IMG/VR virus record: IMGVR_UViG_3300042154_002208
Origin: a virus
Lineage: Duplodnaviria > Caudoviricetes
Length of the DNA stretch: 64,000 bases
Reading direction: 5' to 3' (one strand)
In this document: in pieces, positions 6,601 to 20,514 of the stretch
How the letters are laid out: the number at the start of each line of letters is the position of its first letter
Numbering within the stretch: position 1 is the first letter of the stretch
Position numbers and translations under genes: made by a program
Notes under the pieces: model-generated
Told to the model about the DNA's origin: nothing
The model's database searches: none
The model's input: only the letters and a program-made list of their open reading frames with translations

Positions 6601-9236
6601 GCATAATAGACAACGTGGGTGTTCTATCTATATCAACTACCGGAAATTCCAACATAGAATTGGTTGCAAACGGCACAGGTAGGATCTTGCTAGATGGACA
6701 GTCATGGCCGCATACTGATGGAGAGACCGGGTATGTGTTACAGACAAATGGCACAGGCAATTTATTCTGGGCTGCTCCCACAGCATCTTCATCATTTAGT
6801 AACGCCAATGTAAGCTCATTCCTAACAACATACACCGGCAACATTAGTGCCGGCAATGTTATTGCTAATAGTTTCGTGTCGCCAACGGCAACATCTGCTA
6901 CATTGACATCTACAGGTAATTTGAATATTACTGCGGCTGGTACAATCAATTTAACCACGCCTAACGTATTGGTATCAGGCAATATTGTTGCAAATACATT
7001 TATATCCGCTGGTGCAGGCTCAGGAGAAATAGTATCCACAAGTAATTTATTATTAAGTGCAGCCGGTAATTTGAACTTAACTGCTCCAAATATTTTTGTT
7101 AATGGTAATCTGGTATTAACAGGTGGAATAACAGGGTTAACTCTAACGACCTCTAGTATTGCTGAAGGCTCAAACTTATATTACACCAATGCAAGAGTTC
7201 ACTCTAATGTTATTGGAATACTATCATCTTATGCATTAACCGCTAATTTAAATACTGCAAATGTAAATGAAAATGCCGCAAGTGGCAATTTGTACTATAC
7301 CAATGCCAGAGTAGTATCAAATGTTATCGCTTATCTTGCGGCAAATCCTGCAAGTGGTAGTTATGGTAACGCAAATGTTGGTGCATTCCTAACAACATAT
7401 ACTGGCAATATTAATGCAGGCAATGTTATTGCTAACACGGTCATTTCACCGTTTGCAACATCTGGAACATTAAATTCCACAGGTAATTTAAACATTGTTT
7501 CCGGTGACACAATTAATTTAACCGCAAATACTGTTCTTGCATCTGGCAATATTGTTGCCAACACATTCATTGCTACTGGAACCGGTTCCGCAGAACTTTC
7601 AACTTCAAGCAATTTATTATTAAGCGCGACCGGCAATTTGAACCTAGCTGGCGGTAATATCTTTGTCAATAGCCCTATAACATTCAGAGGAACGGTTACC
7701 GGTATTGCAAGTGCATCGGTTACACAGGCCAATTTAACTACTGCAAATGTAAATGAAATTGCTTCAAGCGGCAATTTATACTATACAAATGCAAGAGTTT
7801 ACTCTAATGTTATTAGCATTTTAGGTACTGCTGGATATGCACTAACCGCTAATTTAACAACGGCAAATGTAACAGAACTTGCTGCAACCGGTGGGTTGTA
7901 TTACACGAATGCAAGAGTATTATCAAATGTTACTGCGTACCTTGCAGCAAACCCACAAGGCGGTACATATGGTAATGCCAATGTTGCAGCATATCTATTA
8001 ACAAATCCTACAAGCGGAAGTTATAGTAATGCAAATGTGAGTGCATTCCTAACAACATACACTGGTAACATTAGTGCCGGTAATGTTATTGCAAATACAA
8101 TTCTTTCGCCTACTGCGACATCTGGAACATTAAATTCCACAGGTAATTTGAACATTATTGCTCAAAATAATACCATTAATTTAACAGCTTCAAATGTTCT
8201 AGCTTCCGGCAATGTTATTGCAAATACATTTATTGCAACTGGATCAGGTTCAGCAGAATTATCGACATCTAGTAACTTATTGTTGAGTGCCACAGGTAAT
8301 TTGAACTTAGCTGGTGGCAACATTTATGTCAATAGCCCAATAACATTCAGAGGAACTGTTACTGGTATATCAGCCGGCGGGTCAGTTACACAGGCTAATT
8401 TAACAACGGCCAATGTTGCAGAACTTGCTTCAAGTGGTAACTTATATTATACAAACGCAAGAGTTTACTCTAATGTTATTGGTTTATTAAGTACATATTT
8501 GTCCGCTGCTAGTTTAGCAACTTATACTGGCAACATTGGCGCCGGCAACGTAATCGCAAACGCATTCTATGCCAATGGTACAGGTGTAGCTGGCGGAACA
8601 ATTTTCTCCGCAGGTAATGTTAATATTACATCTGGTGGAAATATTATTCTGGCAACAGGTGCCAATTCATCTATTGTGGCATTGAGTTCTGGCACTACTG
8701 CAGGAATTATTAATGGATTTGGTAATTTAACAATATCAACATCCGGTAATATTTTCTTATCTCCAGAATCAGGCGGCAAAATTTATGCTTCGACTCCTGT
8801 AAGATTTGCAAATTATTCTAATGTAATTAGCGGTGTTTCAGGGCCGTTAACAGGTGATACTGCATATAATATATTATCTAATACTCTTTCATATTACAAT
8901 AGTACAGGATGGAATAAAGTAGGTTATCTAAATGTTCCGCAATCTGGCGCAGATAAAACTAGTGCATATACATTGGTAGCATCTGATGTTGGTAAGTTTA
9001 TTAGTATTGGCACAAGCGGAAGCATTGTTATTCCAGACGCAGTATTTGCTGCAGGGGATGCGATATCAATCTTTAATAACACAGGTACTGCAGCTACATT
9101 AACTTGTTCTATCACTACTGCGTATATAAGCGGCACAGATACAGACAAAGCAACTGTAACATTGGCAACCAGAGGAGTTGCAAGTATATTGTTTATTAGC
9201 GGAACAGTTTGTGTTATAACTGGTAGCGTATCATGA
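3606..9236 (+). CDS. Long repetitive tail fibre protein (1876 aa)
   Basis: Asn/Thr/Gly/Ala-rich with GNI/GNV beta repeats, 13 copies of the (L/V/I)(Y/F)(Y/F)(T/S)NAR motif, duplicated internal modules and a distinct C-terminal tip domain. Confidence 0.85.
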   Translation: MARKIDVSLISGNGGSNGQLLGANTGNVSFQSIFTGNVIESGNTSSGNVYFSNARAIGALVAGDNISIAANGLISANLSAVSVSSVTGNLNVSGNVIANGFVSTSASAGLISSSGNITMTAAGAVNINSTNVIASGNVIANTFISTGPGSGLLSSTGNVSISATGVVTLTGSSIVVNGPLTANSYSGIFTANVTESASNLYFTNARVFANVVSLLAAKANVVDLTTANVAELNNLYYTNARVASNVIALMPSLQGNNIIIAANGQISANLTGVSVNVNNITGNLNVTGNVIANGFISASASAGLITSTGNITMTAAGAVNINSTNVIASGNLIANTFISVGTGSATLSSTGNVGITGAGNITLNSGNVIASGNVIATKFFGDGSSLTGVGASSFSGNTNGITEGTNNLFYTNARVNAQVESNLALKANVVDLTTANISELNNLYYTNARVVSNVIAYLAANPAISTYGNANVGAFLTTYTGNITAGNVIANTIISPTAIAATITSTGNLNITALGAINLTSPNVIASGNIVANNIITGSGSGGSFTGANLISAGNISATTWLNLYTANVIESDNSIFYTNARVLSNITAYLAANPVSGSFSNANVASFLSTYTGNLAAGNLILTGGIIDNVGVLTIATTSNSNIELSAAGNGRILLDGQAWPHTDGINGYVLQTNGTGNLFWGAPASSFANANVGAFLATYTGNISAGNVIANTILSPTAIAATITSTGNLNITAAGAINLTTTNVLVSGNIVANTFIATGSGSAELTSTSNILLSAAGNLNLTSSNVFVNGNLVLQGALSGLTLTTSSIAEGSNLYYTNARVVSNVIAYLAANPATVSFGNANVSSFLTTYTGNLSAGNVIANSFVSPTATSATLTSTGNLNITAAGTINLTTPNVLVSGNVVANNFISTGAGSGEVASTSNLLLSAAGNLNLTSSNVFVNGNLVLRGGITGLTLTTSSIAEGSNLYYTNARVLSNIEAALPTYTGNIAAGNLILTGGIIDNVGVLSISTTGNSNIELVANGTGRILLDGQSWPHTDGETGYVLQTNGTGNLFWAAPTASSSFSNANVSSFLTTYTGNISAGNVIANSFVSPTATSATLTSTGNLNITAAGTINLTTPNVLVSGNIVANTFISAGAGSGEIVSTSNLLLSAAGNLNLTAPNIFVNGNLVLTGGITGLTLTTSSIAEGSNLYYTNARVHSNVIGILSSYALTANLNTANVNENAASGNLYYTNARVVSNVIAYLAANPASGSYGNANVGAFLTTYTGNINAGNVIANTVISPFATSGTLNSTGNLNIVSGDTINLTANTVLASGNIVANTFIATGTGSAELSTSSNLLLSATGNLNLAGGNIFVNSPITFRGTVTGIASASVTQANLTTANVNEIASSGNLYYTNARVYSNVISILGTAGYALTANLTTANVTELAATGGLYYTNARVLSNVTAYLAANPQGGTYGNANVAAYLLTNPTSGSYSNANVSAFLTTYTGNISAGNVIANTILSPTATSGTLNSTGNLNIIAQNNTINLTASNVLASGNVIANTFIATGSGSAELSTSSNLLLSATGNLNLAGGNIYVNSPITFRGTVTGISAGGSVTQANLTTANVAELASSGNLYYTNARVYSNVIGLLSTYLSAASLATYTGNIGAGNVIANAFYANGTGVAGGTIFSAGNVNITSGGNIILATGANSSIVALSSGTTAGIINGFGNLTISTSGNIFLSPESGGKIYASTPVRFANYSNVISGVSGPLTGDTAYNILSNTLSYYNSTGWNKVGYLNVPQSGADKTSAYTLVASDVGKFISIGTSGSIVIPDAVFAAGDAISIFNNTGTAATLTCSITTAYISGTDTDKATVTLATRGVASILFISGTVCVITGSVS

Positions 9237-10354
9237 GTGGTATAATGAACATGGTAGTGGGCTCTTCATTTGGCCCACCAATTCCAGTATATGCTTTGTA
9301 TGGAACTGGTCGAAACACTGATGGTCAGCTTGGTTTCGGCAATACTTCATCTCCGTATGTAAATTTTACGCAAAGTGGTTCGAGTACTGATTGGTCGGAA
9401 ATCGAGGCCACCTTTTATAGTGCAAATGCAATTAAAACCGATGGTACCATGTGGGCATGGGGATATAATGGTTATTATCAATTAGGCTTAGGCGATAGTA
9501 CAAACAGATCTAGCCCTGTTCAAATTGGATCTAGTACAAATTGGGCAAAAATTAAAGGTGGGGGAGAATTTAGACTTGCCCTCACAACCAACGGTTCTCT
9601 GTGGTCTTGGGGAAAAAATTCATATGGACAGGGCGGCAGGGGAATTACCTATATTGAGGCCGTCCCAGGTCAAGTTGGAGCGTTAACTAATTGGTCAAAA
9701 ATAGCAACCGGCGCATTCACTTCAACATCAATTAAAACAGATGGCACATTGTGGGCATGGGGAAGAAATGCATACGGTGAAATAGGTAATGGTAATACTT
9801 CAAATTATTCTAGCCCAATACAAATAGGTACATTAAATAATTGGTCCAATGTTACTGCCGGATTTTCATTTGTTGCATCGATTAAAACTGATGGTACACT
9901 TTGGGTATGGGGCAGAAATTACAAAGGGGGATTGGGGTTAGGTGATACTACAAATAGATCTAGTCCAGTACAGGTTGGCGCAGGAAACAATTGGTATTCA
10001 ATTGGTGCAGCCAGAGACTCAACCTATGGAATTAAAACCGATGGTACATTATGGGCGTGGGGTCAAAATTATGCGGGCGCACTGGGGCTCGGGGATACTA
10101 CAAATAGATCTAGTCCAGTACAGGTTGGCGCATTAACTAATTGGTCAAAAATTGATGGCAGTACTGGGGGATATCATGTTGCAGCTATTAAAACTGATGG
10201 CACCCTGTGGACATGGGGATACAATCTTTATGGACAATTAGGCCTAGGGTCGTCGGGCAATTATGCTAAAAGATCCAGTCCTGTGCAAGTTGGCTCTTTG
10301 ACCAATTGGTTAGCTGTTAGTGCAGGATATAATCATACCTTGGCATTAGGATAA
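9233..10354 (+). CDS. RCC1/BLIP-II repeat propeller protein translationally coupled to the fibre gene (putative tip adhesin)
   Basis: ATGA overlap with the fibre stop; MSGIMNMVVGSSFGPPIP then 7 RCC1-like repeats. Confidence 0.9.
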   Translation: MSGIMNMVVGSSFGPPIPVYALYGTGRNTDGQLGFGNTSSPYVNFTQSGSSTDWSEIEATFYSANAIKTDGTMWAWGYNGYYQLGLGDSTNRSSPVQIGSSTNWAKIKGGGEFRLALTTNGSLWSWGKNSYGQGGRGITYIEAVPGQVGALTNWSKIATGAFTSTSIKTDGTLWAWGRNAYGEIGNGNTSNYSSPIQIGTLNNWSNVTAGFSFVASIKTDGTLWVWGRNYKGGLGLGDTTNRSSPVQVGAGNNWYSIGAARDSTYGIKTDGTLWAWGQNYAGALGLGDTTNRSSPVQVGALTNWSKIDGSTGGYHVAAIKTDGTLWTWGYNLYGQLGLGSSGNYAKRSSPVQVGSLTNWLAVSAGYNHTLALG

Positions 10355-10383: not shown

Positions 10384-10391
10384 GATAAATA
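10384..10391 (+). promoter_or_regulatory. T4-like late promoter variant GATAAATA
   Basis: AT-rich intergenic region upstream of the modification cluster. Confidence 0.45.
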
Positions 10392-10425: not shown

Positions 10426-10917
10426 ATGGCATTAATTAAAACGATGACGGTTGATGAATTTTATAATAACGAAAGTGCAACCAATTTATACAATGTAGTT
10501 AGAGGTTTACCATTTCAACCAACTGAGTTTGGTAAAGAAATATTAAATTTCAATCACATTCCTGCAGACGCAGATAACCTATTCTCAGCTGTACTCGGTA
10601 AAGATGTTACAGTAGATAGAGAAAAATCAGGTGTTTTTAGATTTCCTGAACTACTTATACACTTTGAAGGATTTGATTCTTTAAAGGAATGGTTATTTGT
10701 AGTTGCAATAGATCAATCTACATTTAACATCTTTGAACACAAATCCGGCGCATTAACTGCATTAGACGGATACCAACACAATTATAGAAATTTATTCGAA
10801 TGGGATCTGATGGTTAACTATCAGTTAAAACCCGGGCAAGCTGTATTTTTCAGACCTTGGTTATTTCATTCATTTGATAGTGGCATTGTGCAAATTTTTA
10901 GATTAATAGAAAAGTAA
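10426..10917 (+). CDS. 2OG-Fe(II) oxygenase-like protein (DUF6445-like)
   Basis: IHFE...AVFFRPWLFHS; resembles the 14832 paralogue (HFD...LFRPWLWHH). Confidence 0.6.
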   Translation: MALIKTMTVDEFYNNESATNLYNVVRGLPFQPTEFGKEILNFNHIPADADNLFSAVLGKDVTVDREKSGVFRFPELLIHFEGFDSLKEWLFVVAIDQSTFNIFEHKSGALTALDGYQHNYRNLFEWDLMVNYQLKPGQAVFFRPWLFHSFDSGIVQIFRLIEK

Positions 10918-10929
10918 ATTGGAAATATT

Positions 10930-11475
10930 ATGAAATTAAATATTGGAGCAGGTGATAAACATTATGATGGATTTTTAAATTGTGATTACGACGATAATTG
11001 TAATCCCGATTATAAATTTGATCTTGAAAACGACACATGGCCGTTTGAAGATAACTCCGTAGAAGAAGTAATTGCACATCATGTGTTAGAACACATGGGC
11101 GAGGGGTATTTTCACGCAATCAAAGAACTATACCGTGTTTGTAAGCATGATGCCATAATTGATATTGTAGTACCACATCATAGACATGAATATTTTGCAA
11201 ATGATCCAACACATCGTAGACCAATTACTGCCGAAGGATTGGGACTCTTTAGTAAAAAATACAATGATCTATGCAAACAACGAGGAGAATCTGCTTCTAG
11301 ATTGGCGCATCATTTCAATGTAGACTTTGATCTTTACACGGTAGAAAATATTCCCGATCAAAGATATTATAAAATATTCAATGGCAGACCCGAAGAAGAA
11401 GTTGAAAGATACGTACAAGAACATAATAACATTATCATGGAAGTCCACATTAAATTGAAGGTAATTAAAGAATGA
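10930..11475 (+). CDS. Class I SAM-dependent methyltransferase (type 11-like)
   Basis: KLNIGAG motif I, WPFEDNSVEEVIAHHVLEH, DPTH. Confidence 0.8.
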   Translation: MKLNIGAGDKHYDGFLNCDYDDNCNPDYKFDLENDTWPFEDNSVEEVIAHHVLEHMGEGYFHAIKELYRVCKHDAIIDIVVPHHRHEYFANDPTHRRPITAEGLGLFSKKYNDLCKQRGESASRLAHHFNVDFDLYTVENIPDQRYYKIFNGRPEEEVERYVQEHNNIIMEVHIKLKVIKE

Positions 11476-12248
11476 ATAAATTGAATCTATTAGTAGTATT
11501 GCAGACACATTCCGTAAAAAGCAGAGATACTACAAAACAAAGATACTGCGGTGCAAGCAAAGCTGAAATAATGCGCAGATGTGTTACAAGTCTTGTTGAC
11601 TCAATTAACTATGCATCCGATCTATTACCACACGTTGATATTTCTTTGCAGGTATTTGACGATCATTCGGATGATGAATCATTCAATAAACTAACAAGTA
11701 TTGCATCTAAATGCAATGTACCTTATAACATTACGCAATTGGAAACAAGAGGCATTATGCCTTCTATTCTTAGATGCTATGAACACGGCAAACAATTTGG
11801 CAAAGACCTAGTATATTTTGTCCAAGATGATTACCTATATGAAATAAACGCCATTAGAGATATGGTCAACACCTGGGTAGATGCCAGCACCAGATTAAAT
11901 AAACCTGTTAGTATTTTCCCATTCAATGATCCCTATCATTACATTCCAGTAAATACACAAATTCCCTCATACGTAGTACAATCTTCAGGTAGACATTGGA
12001 GAACAAACATTTTGACTTCAAGTTGTTTTATGACGCACATTAGCATTATAAAAGACGAATGGGATTTGTTTTATAAAATGGGAACAAGTAAAGTATCCCC
12101 AACAATGGAAGATGATTCAATCAATCAGTTGTTTAAAACACGCGGATATTTTTTGCTTATACCGATTCCAAGTCTTGCACTACATATGCAATTCGATACC
12201 GAAAAGGATCCATTTATAAATTGGAGAGAATGGTGGGATAAGTATTGA
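11472..12248 (+). CDS. GT-A fold (family 2-like) glycosyltransferase
   Basis: VFDDHS and YFVQDDY acidic motifs. Confidence 0.7.
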   Translation: MNKLNLLVVLQTHSVKSRDTTKQRYCGASKAEIMRRCVTSLVDSINYASDLLPHVDISLQVFDDHSDDESFNKLTSIASKCNVPYNITQLETRGIMPSILRCYEHGKQFGKDLVYFVQDDYLYEINAIRDMVNTWVDASTRLNKPVSIFPFNDPYHYIPVNTQIPSYVVQSSGRHWRTNILTSSCFMTHISIIKDEWDLFYKMGTSKVSPTMEDDSINQLFKTRGYFLLIPIPSLALHMQFDTEKDPFINWREWWDKY

Positions 12249-12273
12249 CAAAATATCTTAAATCCGATAAAAT
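12245..12273 (+). promoter_or_regulatory. sigma70-type promoter
   Basis: TTGACA(12245-50)-17 nt-TAAAAT(12268-73) upstream of the sulfotransferase fusion gene. Confidence 0.6.
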
Positions 12274-12305
12274 ATTAATATATACCACAATAATTAGGTG
12301 ATTTT

Positions 12306-14063
12306 ATGAATAAACAACTACATTTTCTTGCAGGCATTCCCCGTTCTGGTTCTACAGTTCTCGCGGCCATTTTAAATCAAAATCCAATGACCCATGTTAG
12401 TACAACATCCGGGTTGGTTCATGCCTTAGATGGCTTGGCAAATACTTGGCATAGTGCTGGGTTATTAAATGAAAACGATGCGGATCGTTCTAAGCTGGCG
12501 GCAACAATGCGAGGGACTATTGATGCGTTCTACTCTGATGTAGACAAGCCCGTTGTTATAGATAAATCTCGCGGATGGCCTATTCCACAAATTATGGCAG
12601 CCATGTCTGCGGTTCTCGAAAGAAGACCTAAAGTTATTGCAACGGTTCGTTCCGTGCCTGATTGTGCTGCATCTTTTGTTCGTGTGGCAAAACCCACAGA
12701 CTTAGATCAACTTATCTATTCAGGTCAGTTAATGGATCACCTCAAAGCTGCTTATATTTCATTGCAAGAGGGTTATAAATTTGCCCCAGAAAATTTCCTG
12801 TTTGTTGAGTATGAAGATTTAGTTAAAGATCCCAAGAAAGAATTAAAACGTATTCATGCGTTCTTGGGCCTACCAGATTTTGATTATGACTTTGGTAACA
12901 TCGATGGTTCTACAGTATCAGAAGATGATGAGAACATTCACGGTTATGCAGGTATGCATGATATTAAGCCCGTGTTACAGCGTCAGCATAATCAAGACCC
13001 AAGAGAATTATTAAAGCATCATTATCCCTCATTCTGTCAGGGTGAGTTCTGGTTAAAGACTCCTAGAACAGTACAAGAAAAACACGATCTTGATTTTCAG
13101 CTTGAAGCAAGTACCCGTGGAGATTTTGAAGAAGGTTGGAGACTATCTCAAAAGATAGAATTAGCAGAACCATTTAACCACAGAGCAGCTTACAACAGAG
13201 GTTGGTATTACTTGAGTCAAGGCCACATCCAAAAGGGATATAGCCTAATGGATCGTGGTCGCATTGTAGGTGTGTTTGGAAACAGTAGACCAGATACCCC
13301 TATGCCTATGTGGGATGGAAAAACAAAAGGTATCGTAATGTTATACCTTGAAGGCGGACTGGGAGATCAAATACACCAAGTTCGTTATGCAAAAGTTATT
13401 GCAGATCGAGGATGTAAAGTCATGGTATGTTGTACCGGTATGCTGGCATCTTTGTTTATAGATGTTGAAGGTGTATCTGCAGTAGTACAGCACGAATCAA
13501 TTTACGGTGTGTATCATGATTTCTGGGTAGCAGGTATGTCTGCAGCAGTTCCATTGGGATTAGAACTTGAGGACTTATCGGGTGCACCTTATCTCAGAAA
13601 ACCATTCTCAATCAAAGGCAAAAAGATGCGTATCGGTTTGAGATGGCAAGGCAACCCACAATTCGAGCATGAGCATCATAAGAAGTTTCCTTCTGAGTTA
13701 ATGTTTGAAGCATTACGTGGTATTAATGCAGAGTTTATTAGCTTGCAAAGAGATGAGGGCGAAGATGAATGTCCATTCTGGGTTAGAAAAGTTCCATTAA
13801 ATACATGGGAAGATACTCGCAAAGCAGTTGCAGAATGTGATCTGGTGATTAGTTCATGCACATCTGTCAGCCACCTTGCTGGTGCTATGGGTGTAGATAC
13901 ATGGGTCGTTACTCCAATTATGCCATACTTCCTATATGCTCTTCCTGGAGACAAGACACCATACTATGATTGTTTCACCATGATGCGTCAGGAAAAATAT
14001 GGAGATTGGGAAGCACCGTTTGTGAAAATTAGAGAAAAACTTTTGGGAATGAATATACAATGA
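12306..14063 (+). CDS. Sulfotransferase - TPR-like - GT9-like glycosyltransferase fusion
   Basis: N-term GIPRSGST PAPS-binding loop, IDKSRGW; central helical AAYNRGWYYL; C-term GLGDQI, GLRWQGNP, DLVISSCTSVSHLAGAMG. Confidence 0.8.
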   Translation: MNKQLHFLAGIPRSGSTVLAAILNQNPMTHVSTTSGLVHALDGLANTWHSAGLLNENDADRSKLAATMRGTIDAFYSDVDKPVVIDKSRGWPIPQIMAAMSAVLERRPKVIATVRSVPDCAASFVRVAKPTDLDQLIYSGQLMDHLKAAYISLQEGYKFAPENFLFVEYEDLVKDPKKELKRIHAFLGLPDFDYDFGNIDGSTVSEDDENIHGYAGMHDIKPVLQRQHNQDPRELLKHHYPSFCQGEFWLKTPRTVQEKHDLDFQLEASTRGDFEEGWRLSQKIELAEPFNHRAAYNRGWYYLSQGHIQKGYSLMDRGRIVGVFGNSRPDTPMPMWDGKTKGIVMLYLEGGLGDQIHQVRYAKVIADRGCKVMVCCTGMLASLFIDVEGVSAVVQHESIYGVYHDFWVAGMSAAVPLGLELEDLSGAPYLRKPFSIKGKKMRIGLRWQGNPQFEHEHHKKFPSELMFEALRGINAEFISLQRDEGEDECPFWVRKVPLNTWEDTRKAVAECDLVISSCTSVSHLAGAMGVDTWVVTPIMPYFLYALPGDKTPYYDCFTMMRQEKYGDWEAPFVKIREKLLGMNIQ

Positions 14064-14842
14064 TATACTTTTTAAGCGGCCTGCCAAGATCAGGCTCAAC
14101 ATTGCTTGGATCAATTTTAAATCAAAATACAGAGGTATATGTTTCTCCCACAAGTCCCTTGTTAGATTTGTTATGCCTGCAAAATGAGGCATTGAACAGA
14201 GTTACTCAGCAATATACCTTTGATGTTGAAAATCAATCCGCATCCATATACACTGCGTTACCCAAAGCATATTATGAGAGCATAAAGAAACCACACATCA
14301 TTGACAAGCACCGAGCATGGGCACGCAATGTTATGCCTGCAAAGCTACACATTTCTGAAAACCCCCGGGTCATTTGTACCAATAGACCGGTTGCAGAAGT
14401 TGTCACAAGTTTTATCAAGTTACTGAATAAAGATCCAAACAATTTTATTGATGCAGCATTAAAACAAAAACGCAAGCCGATAAATACAAACACACGAGCA
14501 ATGGAACTATGGGAATCTTATATCAGAGATCCATGGGAAAGTTTACAGATTGGCTTGAAGAATTACAAAGACAATCTATATTTTGTACAGTATGATGATC
14601 TGGTACAAACTCCTCAAAGCACAATAAATAACATATATGATTTCTTGGAAATAAATAGATATGACCACAAGTTCGATAGTATCACAAATACTTGCGGTGA
14701 AGCCAAAGATACTGCATGGGGATTGAAAGATCTGCATACAATCAGAGGTAAATTAGAAAAGACCAGTGATTCTGCACAAGAAGTACTTGGCGAGAGTTTA
14801 TGTAAATATTTTTCACAATTTGATATTAAAAATGGAATTTGA
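14060..14842 (+). CDS. Sulfotransferase family protein
   Basis: GLPRSGSTLLGSILNQN, IDKHRAW, VQYDDLV; paralogous to the N-term domain of 12306. Confidence 0.8.
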   Translation: MIYFLSGLPRSGSTLLGSILNQNTEVYVSPTSPLLDLLCLQNEALNRVTQQYTFDVENQSASIYTALPKAYYESIKKPHIIDKHRAWARNVMPAKLHISENPRVICTNRPVAEVVTSFIKLLNKDPNNFIDAALKQKRKPINTNTRAMELWESYIRDPWESLQIGLKNYKDNLYFVQYDDLVQTPQSTINNIYDFLEINRYDHKFDSITNTCGEAKDTAWGLKDLHTIRGKLEKTSDSAQEVLGESLCKYFSQFDIKNGI

Positions 14843-15458
14843 TAAAAAAGTAATAGTTATAGATGATTTTTATCCCGATCCTTATATGATGCGGGATATG
14901 GCATTGAATGCGGAATACGAACCTGAAGGCCTGACACCTAACTATCCAGGGCTAAACACCACGAGATCGTATTGGGATACAACCATTACAAAAATGTTCT
15001 GTAAGGCCACGGGAGAAGATGTAAAACCTGCAAAACCCTCGGCCAATGGATTTTTTAGACATACTCGAGCAAAAGACATTGCAAAACAAATTGTGCATTT
15101 TGATCCAACACCGGGACAAACATGGGCAGGAGTAGTTTATTTAAGTCTACCCGAGCATTATGAAGGTAGAGATGCCGGAACAAAAATTGTTTCTCATAAA
15201 CGAACCGGCATGACCATTGCCCCCAAAGATTACACCGAAAGTGACGCAATTGGAGTAAAAACATTCGAAGATATGCGAAATTTCTTTGAAACTGAGGGTA
15301 TAAATACTAATTTATGGAAAACCGAATTGAATGTAGACATTAAGTTTAATCGGGCCGTGCTGTTCAGGCCCTGGTTATGGCACCATATGGGCCAACATTT
15401 TGGAACAGACGTTAACAACAGTAGATTGACACACCTTATATTCCTACAACCGGCTTAA
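14832..15458 (+). CDS. 2OG-Fe(II) oxygenase (DUF6445-like)
   Basis: VIVIDDFYPDP start (ATG 14832 preferred over GTG 14766); HFD...WAGVVYL...NRAVLFRPWLWHH...RLTHLIF. Confidence 0.75.
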   Translation: MEFDKKVIVIDDFYPDPYMMRDMALNAEYEPEGLTPNYPGLNTTRSYWDTTITKMFCKATGEDVKPAKPSANGFFRHTRAKDIAKQIVHFDPTPGQTWAGVVYLSLPEHYEGRDAGTKIVSHKRTGMTIAPKDYTESDAIGVKTFEDMRNFFETEGINTNLWKTELNVDIKFNRAVLFRPWLWHHMGQHFGTDVNNSRLTHLIFLQPA

Positions 15459-15483: not shown

Positions 15484-15491
15484 TATAAATA
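15484..15491 (+). promoter_or_regulatory. T4 late promoter TATAAATA
   Basis: Exact consensus upstream of 15526 and the nine-gene propeller array. Confidence 0.75.
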
Positions 15492-15525: not shown

Positions 15526-15912
15526 ATGGCATTATTTGTACAAGTATTAGACGGCGAAGTTAAACAAGTTTGGGACTCTGCACCACCCGAAGGCCAAGAA
15601 GGCTGGAGAAATGCAGTAGAAGTTCGTGCTGAACTAGTTGCACATCGTCAACAGTTTGCGGCTCACCGCTATGATCTAAATGTAGATCCAGTTCAAATCA
15701 TCTGGGACGCAGTAGATATCACAGTTGAAGATCGTAAAAACAGCATGATTTCTAATGCTAATTTTGCGGTTGCTCGCATGAATATGCAAAATCAGATGAC
15801 ACCCGGAACTCATACCGCAGAAGCAATTGCCGCAGCACAAGCTACAGCAGACGCTAAAGTTGCAGCAGTTAATGCCGCAACAACACACGACGAATTAGAC
15901 GCGTTAGTTTAA
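15526..15912 (+). CDS. Hypothetical tail-fibre assembly-like protein
   Basis: AGGAG RBS; C-term KVAAVNAATTHDELDAL resembles fibre chaperone tails. Confidence 0.6.
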   Translation: MALFVQVLDGEVKQVWDSAPPEGQEGWRNAVEVRAELVAHRQQFAAHRYDLNVDPVQIIWDAVDITVEDRKNSMISNANFAVARMNMQNQMTPGTHTAEAIAAAQATADAKVAAVNAATTHDELDALV

Positions 15913-15932: not shown

Positions 15933-17063
15933 ATGGCCCTGACCATTTCCGGTTTTACTATGACCGGTAATCTTACCGCGGTACATATTCCACCCCCTCC
16001 TCCATCCTATTACCTTTGGTCATGGGGTCGCAACAATTATGGTTTATTGGGGGTAGGAGATACTATAGATAGATCTAGTCCAGTACAGGTTGGTGCTCTT
16101 GGTAATTGGTCAACTGTTTCTGGCGGAGTTTATCATAATCTATCCATTAAAACAGATGGTACCTTATGGTCATGGGGTAGAAATTATTTAGGCTTTTTAG
16201 GTCTTGGCGAGACCACCGCTAGATCTAGTCCAGTGCAAGTAGGTGCATTAACTAATTGGTCAAAAATTGCTACAGGTGGAGGCCTACACAGTTTAGCTAT
16301 AACAACCGATGGGTATTTATGGACTTGGGGTTACAATTATTATGGACAATTAGGATTAGGTAATACTACAGGATATTCAAGTCCAAAACAGATTGGCGCA
16401 TTAACTAATTGGTCAAGTATTTCTGCAGGCGGTAATCACAGTTTAGCTATCAAAACAGATGGTACATTATGGGTATGGGGGTATAACCAGTCAGGTCGAT
16501 TGGGCCTTGGCGATACTAATAATAGATCTAGCCCAGTACAAATTGGGGCTCTAACCACTTGGTCAAGTATTTCTGCAAGCAACGGCGGCTGTGCCGCTAT
16601 CAAAACAGATGGTACTTTGTGGGTTTGGGGCGGTAATTATTTTGGGCAGTTAGGATTAGGCAATACCACATATTATTCAAGTCCCAAACAAGTTGGCGCA
16701 TTAACTACTTGGTCAAGTATTTCTGCAAGCGGCGGCGGCTGTGCCGCTATCAAAACAGATGGTACTTTGTGGGTTTGGGGTAGAAATTTTGGGGCAGGTT
16801 CTTTAGGGTTAGGTGATACTATATCTAGATCTAGTCCAGTACAAATGGGGGCATTAACCAATTGGGCAAGTATTTCTGCAGGAGAACTTTTTTGTGTGTC
16901 CATTAAAACAGATGGTACACTATGGTCATGGGGACACAATGCGTATGGCCGGGTTGGAGATGGTACAACTGTTCTTAAATCTAGCCCAGTACAAATTGGA
17001 TCATCAACTACCTGGTCAAGTATTTCTGCAGGTAGCGCTACTCCATTAGCTATTAAATCTTAA
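15933..17063 (+). CDS. RCC1/BLIP-II propeller paralogue (array 1/9)
   Basis: MALTISG...PPPPP + 7 repeats; GAGGTG RBS. Confidence 0.9.
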   Translation: MALTISGFTMTGNLTAVHIPPPPPSYYLWSWGRNNYGLLGVGDTIDRSSPVQVGALGNWSTVSGGVYHNLSIKTDGTLWSWGRNYLGFLGLGETTARSSPVQVGALTNWSKIATGGGLHSLAITTDGYLWTWGYNYYGQLGLGNTTGYSSPKQIGALTNWSSISAGGNHSLAIKTDGTLWVWGYNQSGRLGLGDTNNRSSPVQIGALTTWSSISASNGGCAAIKTDGTLWVWGGNYFGQLGLGNTTYYSSPKQVGALTTWSSISASGGGCAAIKTDGTLWVWGRNFGAGSLGLGDTISRSSPVQMGALTNWASISAGELFCVSIKTDGTLWSWGHNAYGRVGDGTTVLKSSPVQIGSSTTWSSISAGSATPLAIKS

Positions 17064-17082
17064 TAAAAATTAAAAGAACAAA

Positions 17083-18213
17083 ATGGCACTAACAATTTCA
17101 GGCGTAAGAATAAACGGAGCATTGTCTGCGGTGCATATTCCACCTCCTCCGCCACCTGCGTATTACCTTTGGGCTTGGGGTGCTAATGATTACGGTGAGT
17201 TAGGCCAAGGCGATTATAATATTAATAGATCTAGTCCAGTACAGATTGGTTCATTGACCAATTGGTTAAGTATTTCAGCCGGTGGTTATCACAGCGCGGC
17301 CACCTTCCCAAACGGGACTATATGGACATGGGGCAGTAATTATGTCGGCCAATTAGGGTTAGGAAATACTACAAATAGATCTAGTCCGGTACAAGTTGGT
17401 GCCTTAACCACATGGTCAAGTATTTCTACTGGCCAATACCACAACCTGGCCGTTAAAACAGATGGTACCATGTGGACATGGGGTGGAAATAGTTATGGCA
17501 AATTGGGGTTAGGCGATACCGCAAATAGATCTAGTCCAGTACAAATTGGCGCTTTAACTACTTGGTCATCTGTGAGTGCAGGAGGAAATATCAGTGCGGC
17601 AATTAAAACAGATGGTACATTGTGGGCGTGGGGTAGAAATTATCACGGGTCATTGGGCCAAGGTAATACTACAGATAGATCTAGTCCAGTACAAGTTGGT
17701 TCTCTAACTAATTGGTTGTCTGTTGCTGCTGCATATGTTTGTTGTCACGCAATTAAAACAGATGGTACCTTATGGTCATGGGGTAGAAATTATGCTGGCG
17801 TCTTGGGTTTAGGAGGTACTACAAATATTTCCAGTCCAGCACAAGTTGGTGCATTAACAAATTGGTCAACTGTATCTAACAGAGAACACTATTGTGCAGC
17901 AATTAAAACAGATGGTACATTATGGTCATGGGGCAGGGGTTCTCAAGGCAAATTAGGGTTAGGCGACATTACCAATAGATCCAGCCCGACTCAGGTTGGT
18001 GCATTAACTACTTGGTTAAGTGTTTCTGCAGGATATTCTCACAGCGCTGCTATTAAAACTGATGGTACTCTGTGGTCGTGGGGTAGCGGCGGCCAAGGTA
18101 GATTGGGCCTAGGTGATACTACATCTAGATCTAGTCCAACTCAAGTTGGAGGATTAACTACTTGGTTATATATTGCTGCAGGAAGTACTTTCACCGCCGC
18201 TATTAGTAACTAA
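17083..18213 (+). CDS. RCC1/BLIP-II propeller paralogue (array 2/9)
   Basis: MALTISG...PPPPPP + 7 repeats. Confidence 0.9.
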   Translation: MALTISGVRINGALSAVHIPPPPPPAYYLWAWGANDYGELGQGDYNINRSSPVQIGSLTNWLSISAGGYHSAATFPNGTIWTWGSNYVGQLGLGNTTNRSSPVQVGALTTWSSISTGQYHNLAVKTDGTMWTWGGNSYGKLGLGDTANRSSPVQIGALTTWSSVSAGGNISAAIKTDGTLWAWGRNYHGSLGQGNTTDRSSPVQVGSLTNWLSVAAAYVCCHAIKTDGTLWSWGRNYAGVLGLGGTTNISSPAQVGALTNWSTVSNREHYCAAIKTDGTLWSWGRGSQGKLGLGDITNRSSPTQVGALTTWLSVSAGYSHSAAIKTDGTLWSWGSGGQGRLGLGDTTSRSSPTQVGGLTTWLYIAAGSTFTAAISN

Positions 18214-18229
18214 TTAAAAGAAGAACAAA

Positions 18230-19351
18230 ATGGATCTAATCGGAATAACTATATTTGGCGGAGTCAACATTCAGCCTCCGCCTCCGCCACCTCCTGTGCC
18301 CACATACTATCTATGGTCTTGGGGCAGAAATTATAAAGGTGTAATGGGTCTAGGTGATACTACCAATAGATCCAGTCCCAATCAAGTAGGCTCAATGAGT
18401 GATTGGTTATCTTTGGCTGCAGGAAGATACCATATGACAGCAATTAAAATCGATAACACCTTATGGTCTTTTGGTCAAAATTCAAGCGGTCAATTGGGGC
18501 TAGGCGATACCACCGACAGATCAAGTCCAACTCAAATCGGAGCATTGGCAACCTGGGCGTCATTAAGTTGCGGGGATCAGCACGCCATAGCAATTAAAAC
18601 AGATGGTACCTTGTGGGCATGGGGATACAATGGTATCGGCGGCTTGGGGCTAGGAAATTCTACAAGTTATTCAAGCCCAATGCAAGTTGGCGCGCTAACA
18701 ACTTGGTCAAGTATTGGTACCGGCGGATACAATTCGTTTGCTGTTAAAACCGATGGTACATTATGGACATGGGGATATAATGCACAAGGACAACTGGGTC
18801 TAGGCAATACCGCAGCTAGATCTAGTCCAGTACAGATTGGTGCATTAACTACTTGGTCAAAAGTTGATGGTGGAGATAAGCACACCATGGCAATTAAAAC
18901 AGATGGTACCTTGTGGGCATGGGGTGCTAGCAATCAGGGCCAAACGGGAACGGGAAGTTCTTCGTCTAGCCCAGTACAAGTTGGCGCATTGACAACCTGG
19001 GCAACATTAGGTATAACATATTTGTCATCCTCGGCAATTAAAACCGATGGTACATTATGGATGTGGGGTTCCAACGAGTCGGGACATTTAGGCCTAGGCA
19101 ATACTACCAATCAAGGTAGTCCGGTACAAGTGGGCGCGCTGACTACTTGGTCAAAAGTTAGTTTAGGACAATTCCATACTATGGCAGTTAGAACCGACGG
19201 CACATTATGGACATGGGGATTCAATGTTCAGGGTCAACTTGGTATTGGTAACACCACATATTTTTCCAGTCCAAAACAAGTTGGTGCATTAACTACCTGG
19301 TTGAATGTTACTGCAGGATATAGACATTCAACTGCAATTACATCGCAATAA
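18230..19351 (+). CDS. RCC1/BLIP-II propeller paralogue (array 3/9)
   Basis: MDLIGITIFGG...PPPPPPP + 7 repeats. Confidence 0.9.
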   Translation: MDLIGITIFGGVNIQPPPPPPPVPTYYLWSWGRNYKGVMGLGDTTNRSSPNQVGSMSDWLSLAAGRYHMTAIKIDNTLWSFGQNSSGQLGLGDTTDRSSPTQIGALATWASLSCGDQHAIAIKTDGTLWAWGYNGIGGLGLGNSTSYSSPMQVGALTTWSSIGTGGYNSFAVKTDGTLWTWGYNAQGQLGLGNTAARSSPVQIGALTTWSKVDGGDKHTMAIKTDGTLWAWGASNQGQTGTGSSSSSPVQVGALTTWATLGITYLSSSAIKTDGTLWMWGSNESGHLGLGNTTNQGSPVQVGALTTWSKVSLGQFHTMAVRTDGTLWTWGFNVQGQLGIGNTTYFSSPKQVGALTTWLNVTAGYRHSTAITSQ

Positions 19352-19380
19352 CCCGTTATACTAATTAAAAGAACAAAAAA

Positions 19381-20514
19381 ATGCCATTAATTTTTTCAGG
19401 TATAACCACAAAAGGTAGTTTCGAGATGGTGTATACTCCACCACCGCCTCCCGAACCAACATCTTATCTATGGTCGTGGGGTAGTGGAAGCGACGGTCGA
19501 CTAGGTTTAGGTAATACTACAAGTTACTCAAGTCCAAAACAAATTGGTTCGTTAGGCTCTTGGTTGAATATTGCTGCCGGGTATAATCACGGCATGGCCC
19601 TCAAAACAGATGGTACACTTTGGTCATGGGGTTACAATGATACGGGTCAGTTAGGTTTGGGGGATCTTACAGATAGATCTAGTCCAGTACAGATTGGCGC
19701 AGGAACCACTTGGTCAACAATTGAAGGAAGTTTCTTCTACAACATAGCCATTAAAACAGATGGTACCATGTGGTCATGGGGTTATAATAATAGCGGTCGA
19801 TTGGGGTTAGGCAATACTACAAGTATATCTAGTCCAGTACAAATTGGTGCATTAACTACTTGGTCAAAGATTAATGCAGGTGGTCAGCATACCATGGCCA
19901 TTAAAACAGATGGTACCATGTGGGCATGGGGAGTTAATCAACACGGTGCACTGGGGCTAGGCGATACCACAAATAGATCTAGTCCAGTACAAATTGGTTC
20001 ATTAACTACTTGGTTAAATATTGCTGGAGGGTACAGGGCCAGTATGGCCGTCAAAACAGATGGTACGTTATGGTCATGGGGGATGAATGCTTTTGGTCAG
20101 TTAGGATTAAATAATTATACATATTATTCTAGCCCAAAACAGGTAGGGGGTCTAACCAATTGGTTAAGTGTTGCTGGGGGTAAATATGCTCACAGCGTGG
20201 CCCTGAAAAATAATGGCACCTTGTGGGGATGGGGTCGCAATTATATAGGAATGTTAGGTTTAGGTGGTACCACTCAATATATAAGCCCAGTTCAAGTTGG
20301 TGCTTTAACCAATTGGTCAAGTATTGATGCCGGTAGAAGTCACAGCGTGGCCATTAAAACAGATGGTACCATGTGGGCTTGGGGTGGAAATGGATCCGGT
20401 CGATTGGGGTTAGGTGATACCACAAATAGATCAAGCCCAACACAGATTGGTTCATCAACTAATTGGTCAAAGATTGATGCAGTTGGTACGTTCACCTTGG
20501 CTATTAGCTATTAA
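19381..20514 (+). CDS. RCC1/BLIP-II propeller paralogue (array 4/9)
   Basis: MPLIFSG...PPPPP + 7 repeats. Confidence 0.9.
   Translation: MPLIFSGITTKGSFEMVYTPPPPPEPTSYLWSWGSGSDGRLGLGNTTSYSSPKQIGSLGSWLNIAAGYNHGMALKTDGTLWSWGYNDTGQLGLGDLTDRSSPVQIGAGTTWSTIEGSFFYNIAIKTDGTMWSWGYNNSGRLGLGNTTSISSPVQIGALTTWSKINAGGQHTMAIKTDGTMWAWGVNQHGALGLGDTTNRSSPVQIGSLTTWLNIAGGYRASMAVKTDGTLWSWGMNAFGQLGLNNYTYYSSPKQVGGLTNWLSVAGGKYAHSVALKNNGTLWGWGRNYIGMLGLGGTTQYISPVQVGALTNWSSIDAGRSHSVAIKTDGTMWAWGGNGSGRLGLGDTTNRSSPTQIGSSTNWSKIDAVGTFTLAISY

Follow-up and report, generated by a model that had tools for sequence, protein, structure and literature searches.

Amid the RCC1 fibre-head genes of an uncultured freshwater T4-like phage sits a set of enzyme genes, raising the question of what these enzymes modify. 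The window (the whole stretch of DNA analysed, 64,000 nucleotides) was examined together with related loci from hundreds of other phages, and the reading that we somewhat favour on sequence grounds is that the enzymes would attach sugar to the RCC1 fibre heads within the cytoplasm, the resulting glycan then being lengthened, sulfated and methylated.

Layout of the cassette

The earlier note had described six cassette ORFs flanked by propeller genes; all six (g1 to g6) were recovered at the same coordinates on the plus strand, and RCC1 propeller genes do lie on both sides. Directly 5' is the “fibre-tip” gene, encoding an RCC1-like seven-blade propeller (9233..10354, +; WD40_RLD 1e-67, RCC1 2e-64), and beyond the cassette domain matches identify nine tandem RCC1 propeller genes (15933..26242, +) with MAxTxSG...PPPPP leaders; the products of all of these are candidate substrates. 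The labels methyltransferase, GT-A, sulfotransferase (ST)-TPR-GT9 fusion, second sulfotransferase and, for g6, oxygenase hold, while that of g1 as an oxygenase is doubtful (see below). “Self-contained”, as the cassette had been called, is too strong a term since no nucleotide-sugar synthesis gene lies inside it. Adjacent genes overlap at g2/g3 (4 nt), g4/g5 (4 nt) and g5/g6 (11 nt), and may therefore be translationally coupled. A simple hydropathy scan gave no clear transmembrane segment in any cassette enzyme; the top window (1.74) is in g4, within a domain modelled as globular.

A further gene, g7 (15526..15912, +), was missed in the earlier note. It encodes a conserved Ala-rich protein of 128 aa, is present in 68 of 80 g4-anchored loci and, in the majority of related phages, ends the block of RCC1 and GT9 genes, the typical order being R R [ST~GT9] R R g7 KIN. 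The only clue to its function comes from Atlas, a weak lead (0.87) to tail assembly chaperones, and it is possibly a fibre-assembly helper. Motifs resembling T4 late promoters were read from the sequence about 35 nt 5' of g1 (GATAAATA; 10384..10391, +) and 35 nt 5' of g7 (TATAAATA; 15484..15491, +); NATAAATA-type motifs similar to GATAAATA stand ahead of g7 and of the genes at 26306, 27117 and 27782. Overall TATAAATA is not enriched relative to shuffles, yet all seven copies are on the plus strand.

The g4 fusion and its likely class of substrate

The g4 protein (12306-14063, 585 aa; AF2 model pLDDT 89.9) unites a TPST-like sulfotransferase, TPR helices and a GT9-like GT-B domain. The N-domain (12306..13079, +) is a PAPS-type sulfotransferase (Sulfotransfer_3 2e-17, residues 7-192) with the motifs PRSGST and RSxxDxxxS; residues 1-258 match TPST1/2 with Z 18.1-18.9, and its profile matches TPST in the PDB at 3e-9. 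The linker (13080..13289, +) has consensus TPR matches at profile positions 267-313 and model helices at 261-319. The C-domain (13290..14063, +) was assigned from structure matches and from relatives carrying Glyco_transf_9; E349, G353, D354 and H523 are invariant, and residues 342-585 match WaaC (Z 16.5), WaaF (Z 16.1) and TibC (Z 15.2). TibC heptosylates the TibA adhesin. The best Swiss-Prot structural match of g4 is Caulobacter FlbA (596 aa, 1.3e-14, residues 37-585), taken to be FlmG, the TPR-guided flagellin O-glycosyltransferase. FlmG is described as an enzyme of 596 aa that combines TPR with GT-B and binds flagellins through its TPR domain (PMC7591256). The likeness of g4 to FlbA/FlmG, TibC and tyrosylprotein sulfotransferases points to protein substrates.

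In structure TibC ties, within about 1 Z, with the LPS heptosyltransferases WaaC and WaaF, and this fits an alternative that we consider unlikely yet worth weighing: that host envelope glycans (LPS core, capsule, S-layer glycoprotein) are what the enzymes alter during infection, with the RCC1 genes mere neighbours in an adsorption island. Superinfection might then be blocked, or progeny kept from sticking to debris. Cyanophage papers interpret such glycosyltransferase clusters as modifying the host cell surface (PMC12801897), sulfotransferase/oxygenase/GT1 clusters without RCC1 exist (L106), and g3 is weakly like GtrB-type O-antigen conversion enzymes (phrog_841 1e-4). Furthermore, the spacer ahead of g4 holds a near-consensus sigma-70-like promoter (TTGACA-17-TAAAAT, 11/12; 12245..12273, +), which would fit early expression and so counts against fibre decoration; this motif match is a lead only, and the region has no excess of sigma-70-like matches (47 against 62.5 expected). 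Envelope remodelling is, however, opposed by the TPR plus GT-B build with its best match to FlbA/FlmG, which argues for a protein substrate, and by the hydropathy scan, where no membrane anchor is evident. It is also opposed by the company that the fusion keeps: TPR-GT9 always occurs with RCC1 in the samples taken, and RCC1 is the constant partner of the module across very different phages, whose host envelopes presumably differ.

The accessory enzymes

g2 (10930..11475, +) encodes a class I SAM-dependent methyltransferase (Methyltransf_11 2.2e-5, above cut-off; phrog_6636 3e-16), probably a sugar O-methyltransferase; in BUCT-ZZ01 and contig L138, homologues follow TPR-GT9 as a C-terminal fusion. 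g3 (11472..12248, +) is a GT2-like glycosyltransferase of GT-A fold, with invariant D63 D64 and D119 D120 Y121 (the DDY motif); a profile of eight homologues matches the GT2 enzyme SpsA in the PDB at 1.3e-6. Homologues of g3 occur in contig L166 and, in marine L167, right behind RCC1-GT9. The second, standalone sulfotransferase g5 (14060..14842, +; Sulfotransfer_3 1e-15) shares 31% identity with the g4 N-domain and 45% with QPX48310, an S-SRM01 sulfotransferase that adjoins an RCC1 gene.

g6 (14832..15458, +; DUF6445 3e-11) is a 2OG-Fe(II) oxygenase whose AF2 model (pLDDT 93) has the DSBH fold and whose HxD...H...R set (H89xD91, H184, R198) is conserved. A GTG at 14766 was considered as its start and set aside; the ATG at 14832 is the likely one. 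The best structural matches are OGFOD1 (1.3e-4, TM 0.57) and PKHD-type hydroxylases; Tpa1 and free-proline hydroxylase H11 are also among its near structural neighbours. g1 (10426..10917, +) encodes a shortened DUF6445-like protein of 163 aa that resembles g6 in BLASTP (2e-6). It retains HFE...H. The oxygenase label is tentative because g1 has no family match in Pfam, PHROG or NCBIfam, its likeness to g6 is remote and the C-terminal Arg segment is missing. Metal ligands are not kept across the g1 family, and the L147 homologue has lost HxE and has the domain joined to a P-loop kinase. Judged from its sequence, g1 is a remote, shortened relative of g6 that possibly has oxygenase activity and possibly is non-catalytic.

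The earlier note had suggested, as one example, that prolines in the poly-Pro linkers of the RCC1 leaders are hydroxylated by the oxygenases and that sugar and sulfate are then added to the hydroxyproline, much as in the Hyp-O-glycans of plants and algae. The phage does have both poly-Pro leaders and two DUF6445-type genes, and g6 is structurally nearest to prolyl hydroxylases, though only at E about 1e-4 and TM 0.57. A PPP leader, however, is found in 30 of 280 RCC1 ORFs, all from this phage and its near-identical sisters, which amounts to one independent observation. DUF6445 stands alongside RCC1 proteins lacking poly-Pro in L005, L100 and L147 and occurs without any RCC1 in L106, L142 and L143; across genomes, DUF6445-type genes are found in at least five other contexts that lack either a poly-Pro leader or any RCC1 gene. 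Both the oxygenases and the standalone sulfotransferases occur independently of poly-Pro adhesins. The core, ST~GT9 with RCC1, does without an oxygenase in most phages, and the state of g1 described above also speaks against the proposal. With the leaders confined to sisters and DUF6445 widespread without them, hydroxylation of the linkers therefore finds no comparative support, and we regard it as very unlikely. In AG-345-E08 a DUF6445 gene lies beside RCC1 genes.

Two genes further downstream had also been linked to the cassette. The first (26306..27097, +), put forward there as a candidate PAPS maker, encodes an APS-kinase-like P-loop kinase (residues 1 to about 140; APS_kinase 4e-10) joined to an NMNAT/NadM-like nucleotidyltransferase (150-263), with the motifs GRYQPWHPGH and ISATKIR and PDB matches to 2yvu (3e-6) and 2qjt (2e-5). 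IMG/VR has more than 596 loci with this conserved anchor gene; the kinase type is tied to sulfotransferases in three independent contexts and has no upstream sulfotransferase in 19 of 40 sampled loci, so that a PAPS-making role and its belonging to the glycan system are uncertain. The second (29117..29671, +) is 2OG-oxygenase-like (2OG-FeII_Oxy_3 2.5e-4, below cut-off; phrog_274 3.5e-33; FlmC-family 1.6e-4). It is absent from sister contigs L083-L086 and is probably an independent accessory gene.

Association with RCC1 genes and the proposed pathway

In IMG/VR the g4 fusion has 182 full-length relatives, of which 80 were retrieved; every one of these has ST~GT9 fused, and wherever the flank reached at least 1.5 kb on both sides (64 loci) an RCC1 gene lies within 3 kb. 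An independent second sample of 40 loci was anchored on the kinase gene: GT9 was seen in 12, every one with RCC1, and neither in 24; the remaining four, all sister contigs, had RCC1 alone, and by analogy with the window GT9 is expected past the locus edge. TPR-GT9 without RCC1 was seen neither in the g4-anchored loci with enough flank nor in the kinase-anchored ones. The loci share phylogenetic kinship, and these counts therefore overstate the number of independent observations. Among deposited phages, the closest RCC1 relatives are in S-SRM01, AG-345-E08 and BUCT-ZZ01, exactly those carrying TPR-GT9 homologues; the two genes are within about 2 kb in each, and in S-SRM01 and BUCT-ZZ01 the block is directly behind annotated tail-fibre genes. 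RCC1-GT9-GT2 genes overlap in marine TARA contigs, and Logan contig L166 combines Gly_rich_2, RCC1, a methyltransferase and GT9~ST with g2-like and g3-like genes. Rosetta-stone fusions comprise ST-TPR-GT9, GT9-ST (P0158) and GT9-methyltransferase (BUCT-ZZ01, L138).

It could instead be that there is no single pathway and that the locus is a hotspot mosaic, beside the fibre genes, of unrelated accessory genes. ST~GT9 alone would then relate to RCC1, and the targets of the oxygenases, g5, g2 and g3 would be small molecules, nucleotides or other proteins; we think this quite improbable. Accessory genes do differ greatly among related phages, many different inserts occupy one site in the kinase-anchored sample, and g1, g2, g3, g5 and g6 are found together in near-identical sister contigs only. 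The region is a hypervariable island, and some co-location could stem from a recombination hotspot. Cyanophage dioxygenase arrays have been interpreted as secondary-metabolite enzymes (Iyer et al. 2010, PMC2938197), and the CurM polyketide sulfotransferase is another structural match of the g4 sulfotransferase domain (Z 16.7). Against a mosaic are the overlaps g2/g3 and g4/g5/g6 and the fusion of g2-type methyltransferases to GT9 in two lineages. Homologues of g2 and g3 also accompany GT9 and RCC1 elsewhere, in marine contigs and in L166, which is very distant, and a sulfotransferase is paired with a DUF6445-type gene in at least five contexts. Sulfotransferase/DUF6445/GT clusters without an RCC1 gene (L095, L106, L142, L143, L158) mean that the target of the cassette's accessory half may be a different one.

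Decoration of the fibre heads draws on synteny, distant lineages, fusions, the fold, the lack of a clear transmembrane segment, gene overlaps, late-promoter-like motifs and tail-fibre adjacency; the WaaC/WaaF tie, the RCC1-free clusters, the confinement of the full set to sisters and the island's hypervariability were counted against it. The earlier note's general idea, that the phage's fibre proteins carry a glycan with sulfate and methyl groups built by these enzymes, gains from the comparative genomics (GT9/RCC1 synteny, fusions, FlbA/FlmG fold) rather than from chemistry. The best reading is that the cassette is an enlarged version of a widespread phage module whose enzymes, soluble and cytoplasmic, would decorate presumed RCC1 fibre heads before virion assembly. 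We found no published description of such a module in the literature.

From the observed gene identities, folds, motifs, fusions and synteny we infer substrate, sugar, order of steps and benefit as follows. The TPR segment of g4 would recruit newly made RCC1 protein, as that of FlmG recruits flagellin, and the GT9-like domain would attach the first sugar to Ser/Thr, or possibly Asn; donor precedents are ADP-heptose for GT9 and CMP-pseudaminic acid for FlmG. The g4 sulfotransferase domain could then sulfate this sugar from PAPS supplied by the host, or possibly by 26306. In this phage g3 might extend the glycan and g2 O-methylate it, and the overlapping pair g5 and g6 might add a hydroxyl and a second sulfate. 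The binding heads would thereby acquire a coat, the likely benefit being that it is charged and hydrated, protease-resistant or receptor-tuning. If this is true, it would be the first function for phage sulfotransferases.

Gene content and layout of the cassette

The window appears to come from the genome of an uncultured T4-like phage of aquatic origin; all of its ORFs longer than 144 aa lie on the + strand, its gene content includes ThyX, both RNR subunits and a T4-type RNase H, and no tRNA was found in it. Seven tightly packed + strand genes separate the RCC1 propeller gene at 9233-10354 from a tandem array of nine more at 15933-26242, the propellers being the presumed fibre heads: g1 (10426-10917), g2 (10930-11475), g3 (11472-12248), g4 (12306-14063), g5 (14060-14842), g6 (14832-15458) and g7 (15526-15912). 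The g2/g3 and g4/g5 pairs each overlap by 4 nt and the g5/g6 pair by 11 nt. A megablast search against 50,697 phage records returned no near relative of the cassette among deposited phages. An earlier note had labelled g1 to g6, in order, as oxygenase, methyltransferase, GT-A glycosyltransferase, sulfotransferase-TPR-GT9 fusion, sulfotransferase and oxygenase; the labels of g2 to g6, five of the six, hold well, and g7 is a gene that it had overlooked. A simple hydropathy scan gave no clear transmembrane segment in any cassette enzyme.

The g2 product is a class I SAM methyltransferase (Methyltransf_11, 25.5 bits with a cut-off of 21.2; phrog_6636, 3e-16) and g3 is a GT2-like GT-A enzyme; an 8-sequence profile of g3 matched SpsA at 1.3e-6, with D119 and D120 and the DDY motif invariant, and the single-sequence Pfam search gave an E of 0.029 at best. 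Two sulfotransferases are present, the N-terminal domain of g4 and the separate protein g5, which are 31% identical to each other and score 64.4 and 58.9 bits, respectively, against Sulfotransfer_3 (cut-off 27). Each carries two recognisable motifs (IPRSGSTV and VRSVPDCAAS in g4, LPRSGSTL and NRPVAEVVTS in g5); in both, the PRSGST loop is taken to bind the 5'-phosphosulfate and the R...S motif the 3'-phosphate. For g6 the likely start is the ATG at 14832; its product belongs to DUF6445 and adopts, in a model of pLDDT 93, the DSBH fold of 2OG oxygenases. The fold was apparent from the fold search alone; the DUF6445 profile found nothing meaningful among PDB sequences. The best fold neighbours of g6 are OGFOD1 (1.3e-4, TM 0.57) and PKHD-type hydroxylases, with WelO5, H11 and Tpa1 also matched; H89, D91, H184 and R198, which make up the HxD...H metal triad and the 2OG-binding Arg, are invariant or nearly so in 20 sequences.

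The remaining label, that of g1 as an oxygenase, is weaker. The protein is a shortened remote relative of g6, and the window copy has an HFE motif and the distal His; against this, it has no family match, the segment bearing the C-terminal Arg is missing, and a homologue in the related locus L147 lacks the HxE. There a 297-aa ORF (L147:9500-10393; IMGVR_UViG_3300046804_002325) joins a g1-like domain that has lost its metal ligands to a P-loop kinase paralogous to the N-terminal domain of the window's 26306 protein (30% identity, 3e-17), and it is located between a standalone sulfotransferase and the 26306 orthologue. The fusion hints that the g1 family may work with the kinase rather than as an oxygenase. 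The same locus encodes a 117-aa Cys-rich protein (8372-8725; CGTCTLCC...C..C) between its TPR-GT9 gene and the sulfotransferase.

The g7 product, 128 aa long, Ala-rich and conserved, marks the end of the RCC1/GT9 block in 68 of 80 related loci; the one lead to its function is a weak similarity, from the Atlas, to tail assembly chaperones. The gene is preceded by TATAAATA, exact copies of which occur seven times, all on the + strand (15299, 15484, 22251, 27749, 32361, 41905 and 61991); over the whole window this total is the chance number, with no enrichment over shuffles. Variants of NATAAATA precede g1, 26306 and 27117, and sigma-70-like promoter matches were fewer than expected. In the propeller array, the GTG start listed for 20414-21652 is probably over-extended upstream, the RCC1 leader MAFTFSG beginning at the ATG at 20531. 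Beyond the array, 27117-27761 and 29117-29671 are recent accessory insertions; both are missing from the sister contigs L083-L086, which otherwise retain the order kinase, 27782, 28224, fn3, 31122, DUF7207.

The g4 fusion protein and its nearest known enzymes

The g4 product is a true three-part fusion of 585 aa, in which a sulfotransferase domain is followed by TPR helices and then by a GT9 domain (AF2 model pLDDT 89.9). In the model, residues 1-258 superimpose on the TPST1/2 fold (Z 18.1-18.9, 242 residues aligned, rmsd 4.0). TPST1/2 (PDB 5wrj, 3ap1) are the closest solved relatives of this domain in both fold and sequence (Z 18.9; profile E 3e-9) and share with it the PRSG(S/T)T 5'-phosphosulfate-binding motif, albeit at about 14-17% identity. 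The Sulfotransfer_3 family also contains carbohydrate and polyketide sulfotransferases (NodH, NoeE, CurM), and a sugar acceptor is favoured for the g4 domain because it is fused to a glycosyltransferase. Sulfation of the conserved tyrosine pair after the poly-Pro run of the RCC1 leaders was considered and set aside; YYLWxWG is the first propeller strand and has no acidic context.

The GT9 domain was assigned through relatives found in a representative search, the fold model and fold searches. Single-sequence searches of the C-terminal half against PDB and Pfam gave TPR noise or nothing, and the C-terminal domain alone had no match to Glyco_transf_9 or any other Pfam family even at E 10; the relatives that it retrieves carry Glyco_transf_9 at up to 8.5e-27. 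Residues 342-585 align with the GT9 enzymes WaaC (Z 16.5, 229 aligned, rmsd 3.2), WaaF (16.1), 3tov (15.6) and TibC (15.2). Within GGLGDQI, G353 and D354 are invariant, as are H523 and G529 within SCTSVSHLAGAMG. The Asp of the G-D motif would correspond to the catalytic Asp of WaaC, and S/T-x-x-H-L-A-x-A-x-G is the C-terminal GT9 motif; the catalytic roles of these residues in g4 are putative.

By far the best Swiss-Prot model for g4 is Caulobacter FlbA (P21296, 596 aa), matched over residues 37-585 at 1.3e-14. More widely, the C-domain family comprises 26,696 representative clusters at E <=1e-3, many of its members being giant proteins of bacteria that combine TPR arrays with 3-7 GT9-like modules. 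We take FlbA to be FlmG, given the equal length of 596 aa and the history of the gene. Among systems known from experiment, the closest are FlmG with flagellin, TibC/Aah with the adhesins TibA/AIDA-I, and mycobacteriophage virion glycosylation. In the last of these, phage-encoded glycosyltransferases and a methyltransferase reportedly modify the phage's own structural proteins, as described by Freeman et al. in 2023; to our knowledge virion glycosylation has been documented so far only for actinobacteriophages. The targets there are C-terminal extensions of the capsid and tail-tube proteins of actinobacteriophages and the enzymes belong to other families than those of the cassette, with no sulfation, hydroxylation or RCC1 protein involved.

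FlmG is a 596-residue TPR and GT-B protein whose TPR domain binds all flagellins tested and whose GT domain O-glycosylates flagellins in the cytoplasm (PMC7591256). Like g4, it is a soluble protein in which a GT-B domain comes after TPR repeats; its TPR domain binds several paralogous substrates, the six flagellins, and the candidate substrates of g4 are likewise many RCC1 paralogues. Unlike g4, which has its fused sulfotransferase, FlmG has no such domain and it transfers pseudaminic acid onto flagellin; no Pse pathway genes were found in the window. TibC and Aah (PDB 4rap, 4rb4) are GT-B enzymes of GT9 type that glycosylate, in the cytoplasm, a repetitive adhesin encoded by the adjacent gene, and TibC matches g4 over residues 329-585 (Z 15.2). 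In contrast to g4, TibC is without TPR or sulfotransferase domains; it forms an iron-containing dodecamer, and its substrate is a beta-helix passenger domain and not a propeller.

Since TibC and the LPS heptosyltransferases match equally well, the fold by itself does not settle whether the acceptor of g4 is a protein or a lipid-linked glycan. The main rival reading, that the cassette remodels the host envelope, draws on this same fold match; set beside the constant neighbourhood of propeller genes described below, we regard it as unlikely. A complex prediction for g4 residues 250-585 with the RCC1 protein 15933-17063 gave no answer (score 0.00) and bears on binding in neither direction. The window has no recognisable heptose-activation genes; E. 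coli makes both PAPS and ADP-heptose. At the far end of the window, 63172-63945 encodes a two-domain protein, cytidylyltransferase-like and mannose-6-phosphate-isomerase-type cupin, that may be a nucleotide-sugar enzyme; the related locus L152 has the same gene, some 3 kb upstream of its kinase.

Association with RCC1 propeller genes

IMG/VR contains 182 full-length relatives of the g4 fusion, 70-97% identical to it, and all 80 of those retrieved are fused sulfotransferase-GT9 proteins. An RCC1 gene lies within 3 kb of the fusion in 64/64 loci with at least 1.5 kb of flank on each side, the usual order being two RCC1 genes, the fusion, two more RCC1 genes, g7 and the kinase. A second sample was anchored on the kinase gene instead of g4 and comprised 40 loci with at least 8 kb upstream. 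GT9 and RCC1 genes were both present in 12 of these; neither GT9 nor RCC1 was seen in 24, five of which had a standalone sulfotransferase; and in the other four, all sister contigs, RCC1 was present with GT9 not seen, where by analogy with the window the GT9 gene would lie beyond the locus edge. Similarly, the three deposited phages whose RCC1 genes are closest, namely S-SRM01, BUCT-ZZ01 and marine virus AG-345-E08, are exactly those with TPR-GT9 homologues, and the two genes are within about 2 kb of each other in each. S-SRM01 and BUCT-ZZ01 are in culture, and QPX48300, QPX48302, QPX48309 and UTS52180 are RCC1 proteins of these two phages. In marine TARA contigs RCC1, GT9 and GT2 genes overlap, and the Logan contig L166 carries Gly_rich_2, RCC1, methyltransferase and GT9-sulfotransferase genes together with g2-like and g3-like genes.

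The fusions themselves take several forms: sulfotransferase-TPR-GT9, GT9-sulfotransferase, and GT9 with a g2-type methyltransferase. Such varied partners are as expected if sulfotransferase and methyltransferase act on the product of the glycosyltransferase. In two genes the g2-type methyltransferase, rather than a sulfotransferase, is fused at the C-terminus of the TPR-GT9 (L162:8063-9778, which is BUCT-ZZ01 UTS52179, and L138:75-1796). The BUCT-ZZ01 gene comes after that of a 700-aa RCC1 protein annotated 'BNR repeat domain protein', itself two genes downstream of an annotated tail fibre gene.

The full set of enzymes is much rarer. Outside the window, only L003 and L004, a pair of near-identical sister contigs, have all of g1, g2, g3, g5 and g6, with partial mixes elsewhere, and the recurring pair of a standalone sulfotransferase and an adjacent DUF6445-type gene (window, L100, L106, L142/143 and L147) occurs both with and without RCC1 genes. 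These distributions would suit a mosaic island that serves no single pathway; the fusions of g2-type methyltransferases to GT9 point the other way, and we consider such an island quite improbable. DNA modification, which had been kept as an alternative, was set aside, as the cassette contains nothing similar to a DNA glycosyltransferase or a base-modifying enzyme and the linkage of TPR-GT9 to RCC1 explains the data better.

The earlier note had also proposed that the oxygenases hydroxylate proline in the PPPPP leaders of the nine-gene array. The co-occurrence of oxygenase and poly-Pro across genomes that this would lead one to expect was not seen. A PPP run is present in 30 of 280 RCC1 ORFs of related loci, all from sister contigs; DUF6445 genes occur without PPP leaders in at least five contexts, where the RCC1 proteins lack poly-Pro or the RCC1 gene is absent, and other clades have quite different RCC1 leaders. 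Prolyl hydroxylases are among the fold neighbours of g6 at E about 1e-4, as are small-molecule oxygenases. By the note's own yardstick the proposal is not supported, and hydroxylation of poly-Pro in this one phage is, in our judgement, very unlikely. Outside the lineage of the window (L008, L014, L030 and others), two leader types alternate on the RCC1 genes flanking the fusion, MSFRY..KPGFNPLA.. and MP.T..GVQYSGIWT.QQ..WPVPPGP, as against MAxTxSG..PPPPP in the window lineage.

Candidate sulfate-donor enzyme, proposed pathway and significance

The candidate for PAPS synthesis, 26306-27097, has two domains. The N-terminal one is APS-kinase-like, with a P-loop, NADDVR instead of DGDxxR, FS...R and F-x-x-P kept and a short lid; it scores 40.3 bits against Pfam APS_kinase (cut-off 21.1), over profile positions 5-94 of 152 only, and 29 bits against NCBIfam apsK, whose cut-off is 138.7. 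The C-terminal one is an NMNAT/NadM-like nucleotidyltransferase (2qjt, 2e-5; NF002243, 4.5e-6) with GRYQPWHPGH and ISATKIR motifs; no family match to an ATP sulfurylase domain was found in the protein, the C-terminal domain matching NMN adenylyltransferases. An adenylyltransferase joined to an adenosine 3'-kinase would be apt for making PAPS, and also for other 3'-phospho-adenylyl compounds; the NMNAT-like domain might instead act in NAD salvage.

Several observations count against a dedicated role in sulfation. As an anchor gene it is very abundant, with at least 596 loci in IMG/VR, and in a large protein collection all 8,000 scored candidates matched it; in 19 of 40 loci the 8-10 kb upstream contain no sulfotransferase, a record rated complete has a marginal 16-bit sulfotransferase-like match only, and in L152 the gene is placed among DNA polymerase, FolE and QueD genes. 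Speaking for a link, both domains recur in L166 in the opposite order, there with the canonical motifs LDGDxxR and GFSxxDR, and overlap the end of its GT9-sulfotransferase gene; a bacterial contig has a KTI12-like kinase that overlaps a sulfotransferase-GT9 gene at its start; and in L147 the kinase-domain paralogue fused to the g1-like domain comes directly after a sulfotransferase. A PAPS-related role for 26306 is thus a real possibility that falls somewhat short of probable.

On balance the cassette is probably, though we hold this with some reserve, an enlarged version of a phage module whose cytoplasmic enzymes modify RCC1 fibre-head proteins by a stepwise mechanism. Gene identities, folds, motifs, fusions and synteny are what we observe, and from them we infer the substrate and the sugar, the sequence in which the enzymes act and what the phage gains. 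A propeller would be recruited by the TPR segment of g4 (about residues 255-330), the GT9 domain would add the first sugar, and the fused sulfotransferase domain would sulfate it; g3 may then lengthen the glycan and g2 methylate it, with g5 and g6 adding a hydroxyl and another sulfate. A more ambitious version makes of these genes a complete private pathway, in which 26306 (NMNAT-like and APS-kinase-like) would be a minimal PAPS synthase of a new type feeding two sulfotransferases and, together with the TPR-GT9, GT-A, methyltransferase and DUF6445 hydroxylase, would yield a sulfated, methylated glycan on up to 13 RCC1 propellers; this we think improbable.

The closest printed prediction concerns bacterial operons in which 2OG dioxygenases, a methyltransferase, sulfotransferases and a PAPS synthetase stand beside phage tail-collar or glycine-rich collagen-like proteins, and for which hydroxylation and then sulfation of the co-encoded protein were predicted (Iyer, Abhiman, de Souza and Aravind 2010, PMC2938197). 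Both the g5-g6 pair and the window's Gly_rich_2 protein (2521-3552) agree with this logic; the operons of Iyer et al., which are predictions only, differ in having beta-hydroxylase and PhyH families and not DUF6445, and are without TPR-GT9 or RCC1 propellers. This Gly_rich_2 domain protein, with 31% Gly, is encoded upstream of the block of fibre and RCC1 genes, an arrangement repeated in the very distant L166 (2822-4687), and both proteins recall the glycine-rich hydroxylation and sulfation substrates proposed by Iyer et al. 2010. Our literature searches found no paper on RCC1 propellers paired with TPR-GT9 and sulfotransferase enzymes, and none that brings phage tail fibres together with a sulfotransferase and a glycosyltransferase; the S-SRM01 paper does not discuss the cluster, and the role of phage sulfotransferases is unclear according to a 2023 paper.

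We class the module among cytoplasmic systems dedicated to glycosylating a protein of a surface appendage, which are a known kind; what is new is the fused sulfotransferase and the unusually rich tailoring set in this phage. Were the complete private pathway true, it would give the first sulfated glycoprotein of a prokaryotic virus and a function for many orphan phage sulfotransferases. If aquatic phages do sulfo-glycosylate their receptor-binding heads, host range and adsorption would not be readable from protein sequence alone, and the surface charge of the virion and its stability in lake water would be tuned enzymatically. The TPR-GT9 family, with its giant multi-domain bacterial proteins included, would then gain a testable function as protein glycosyltransferases.
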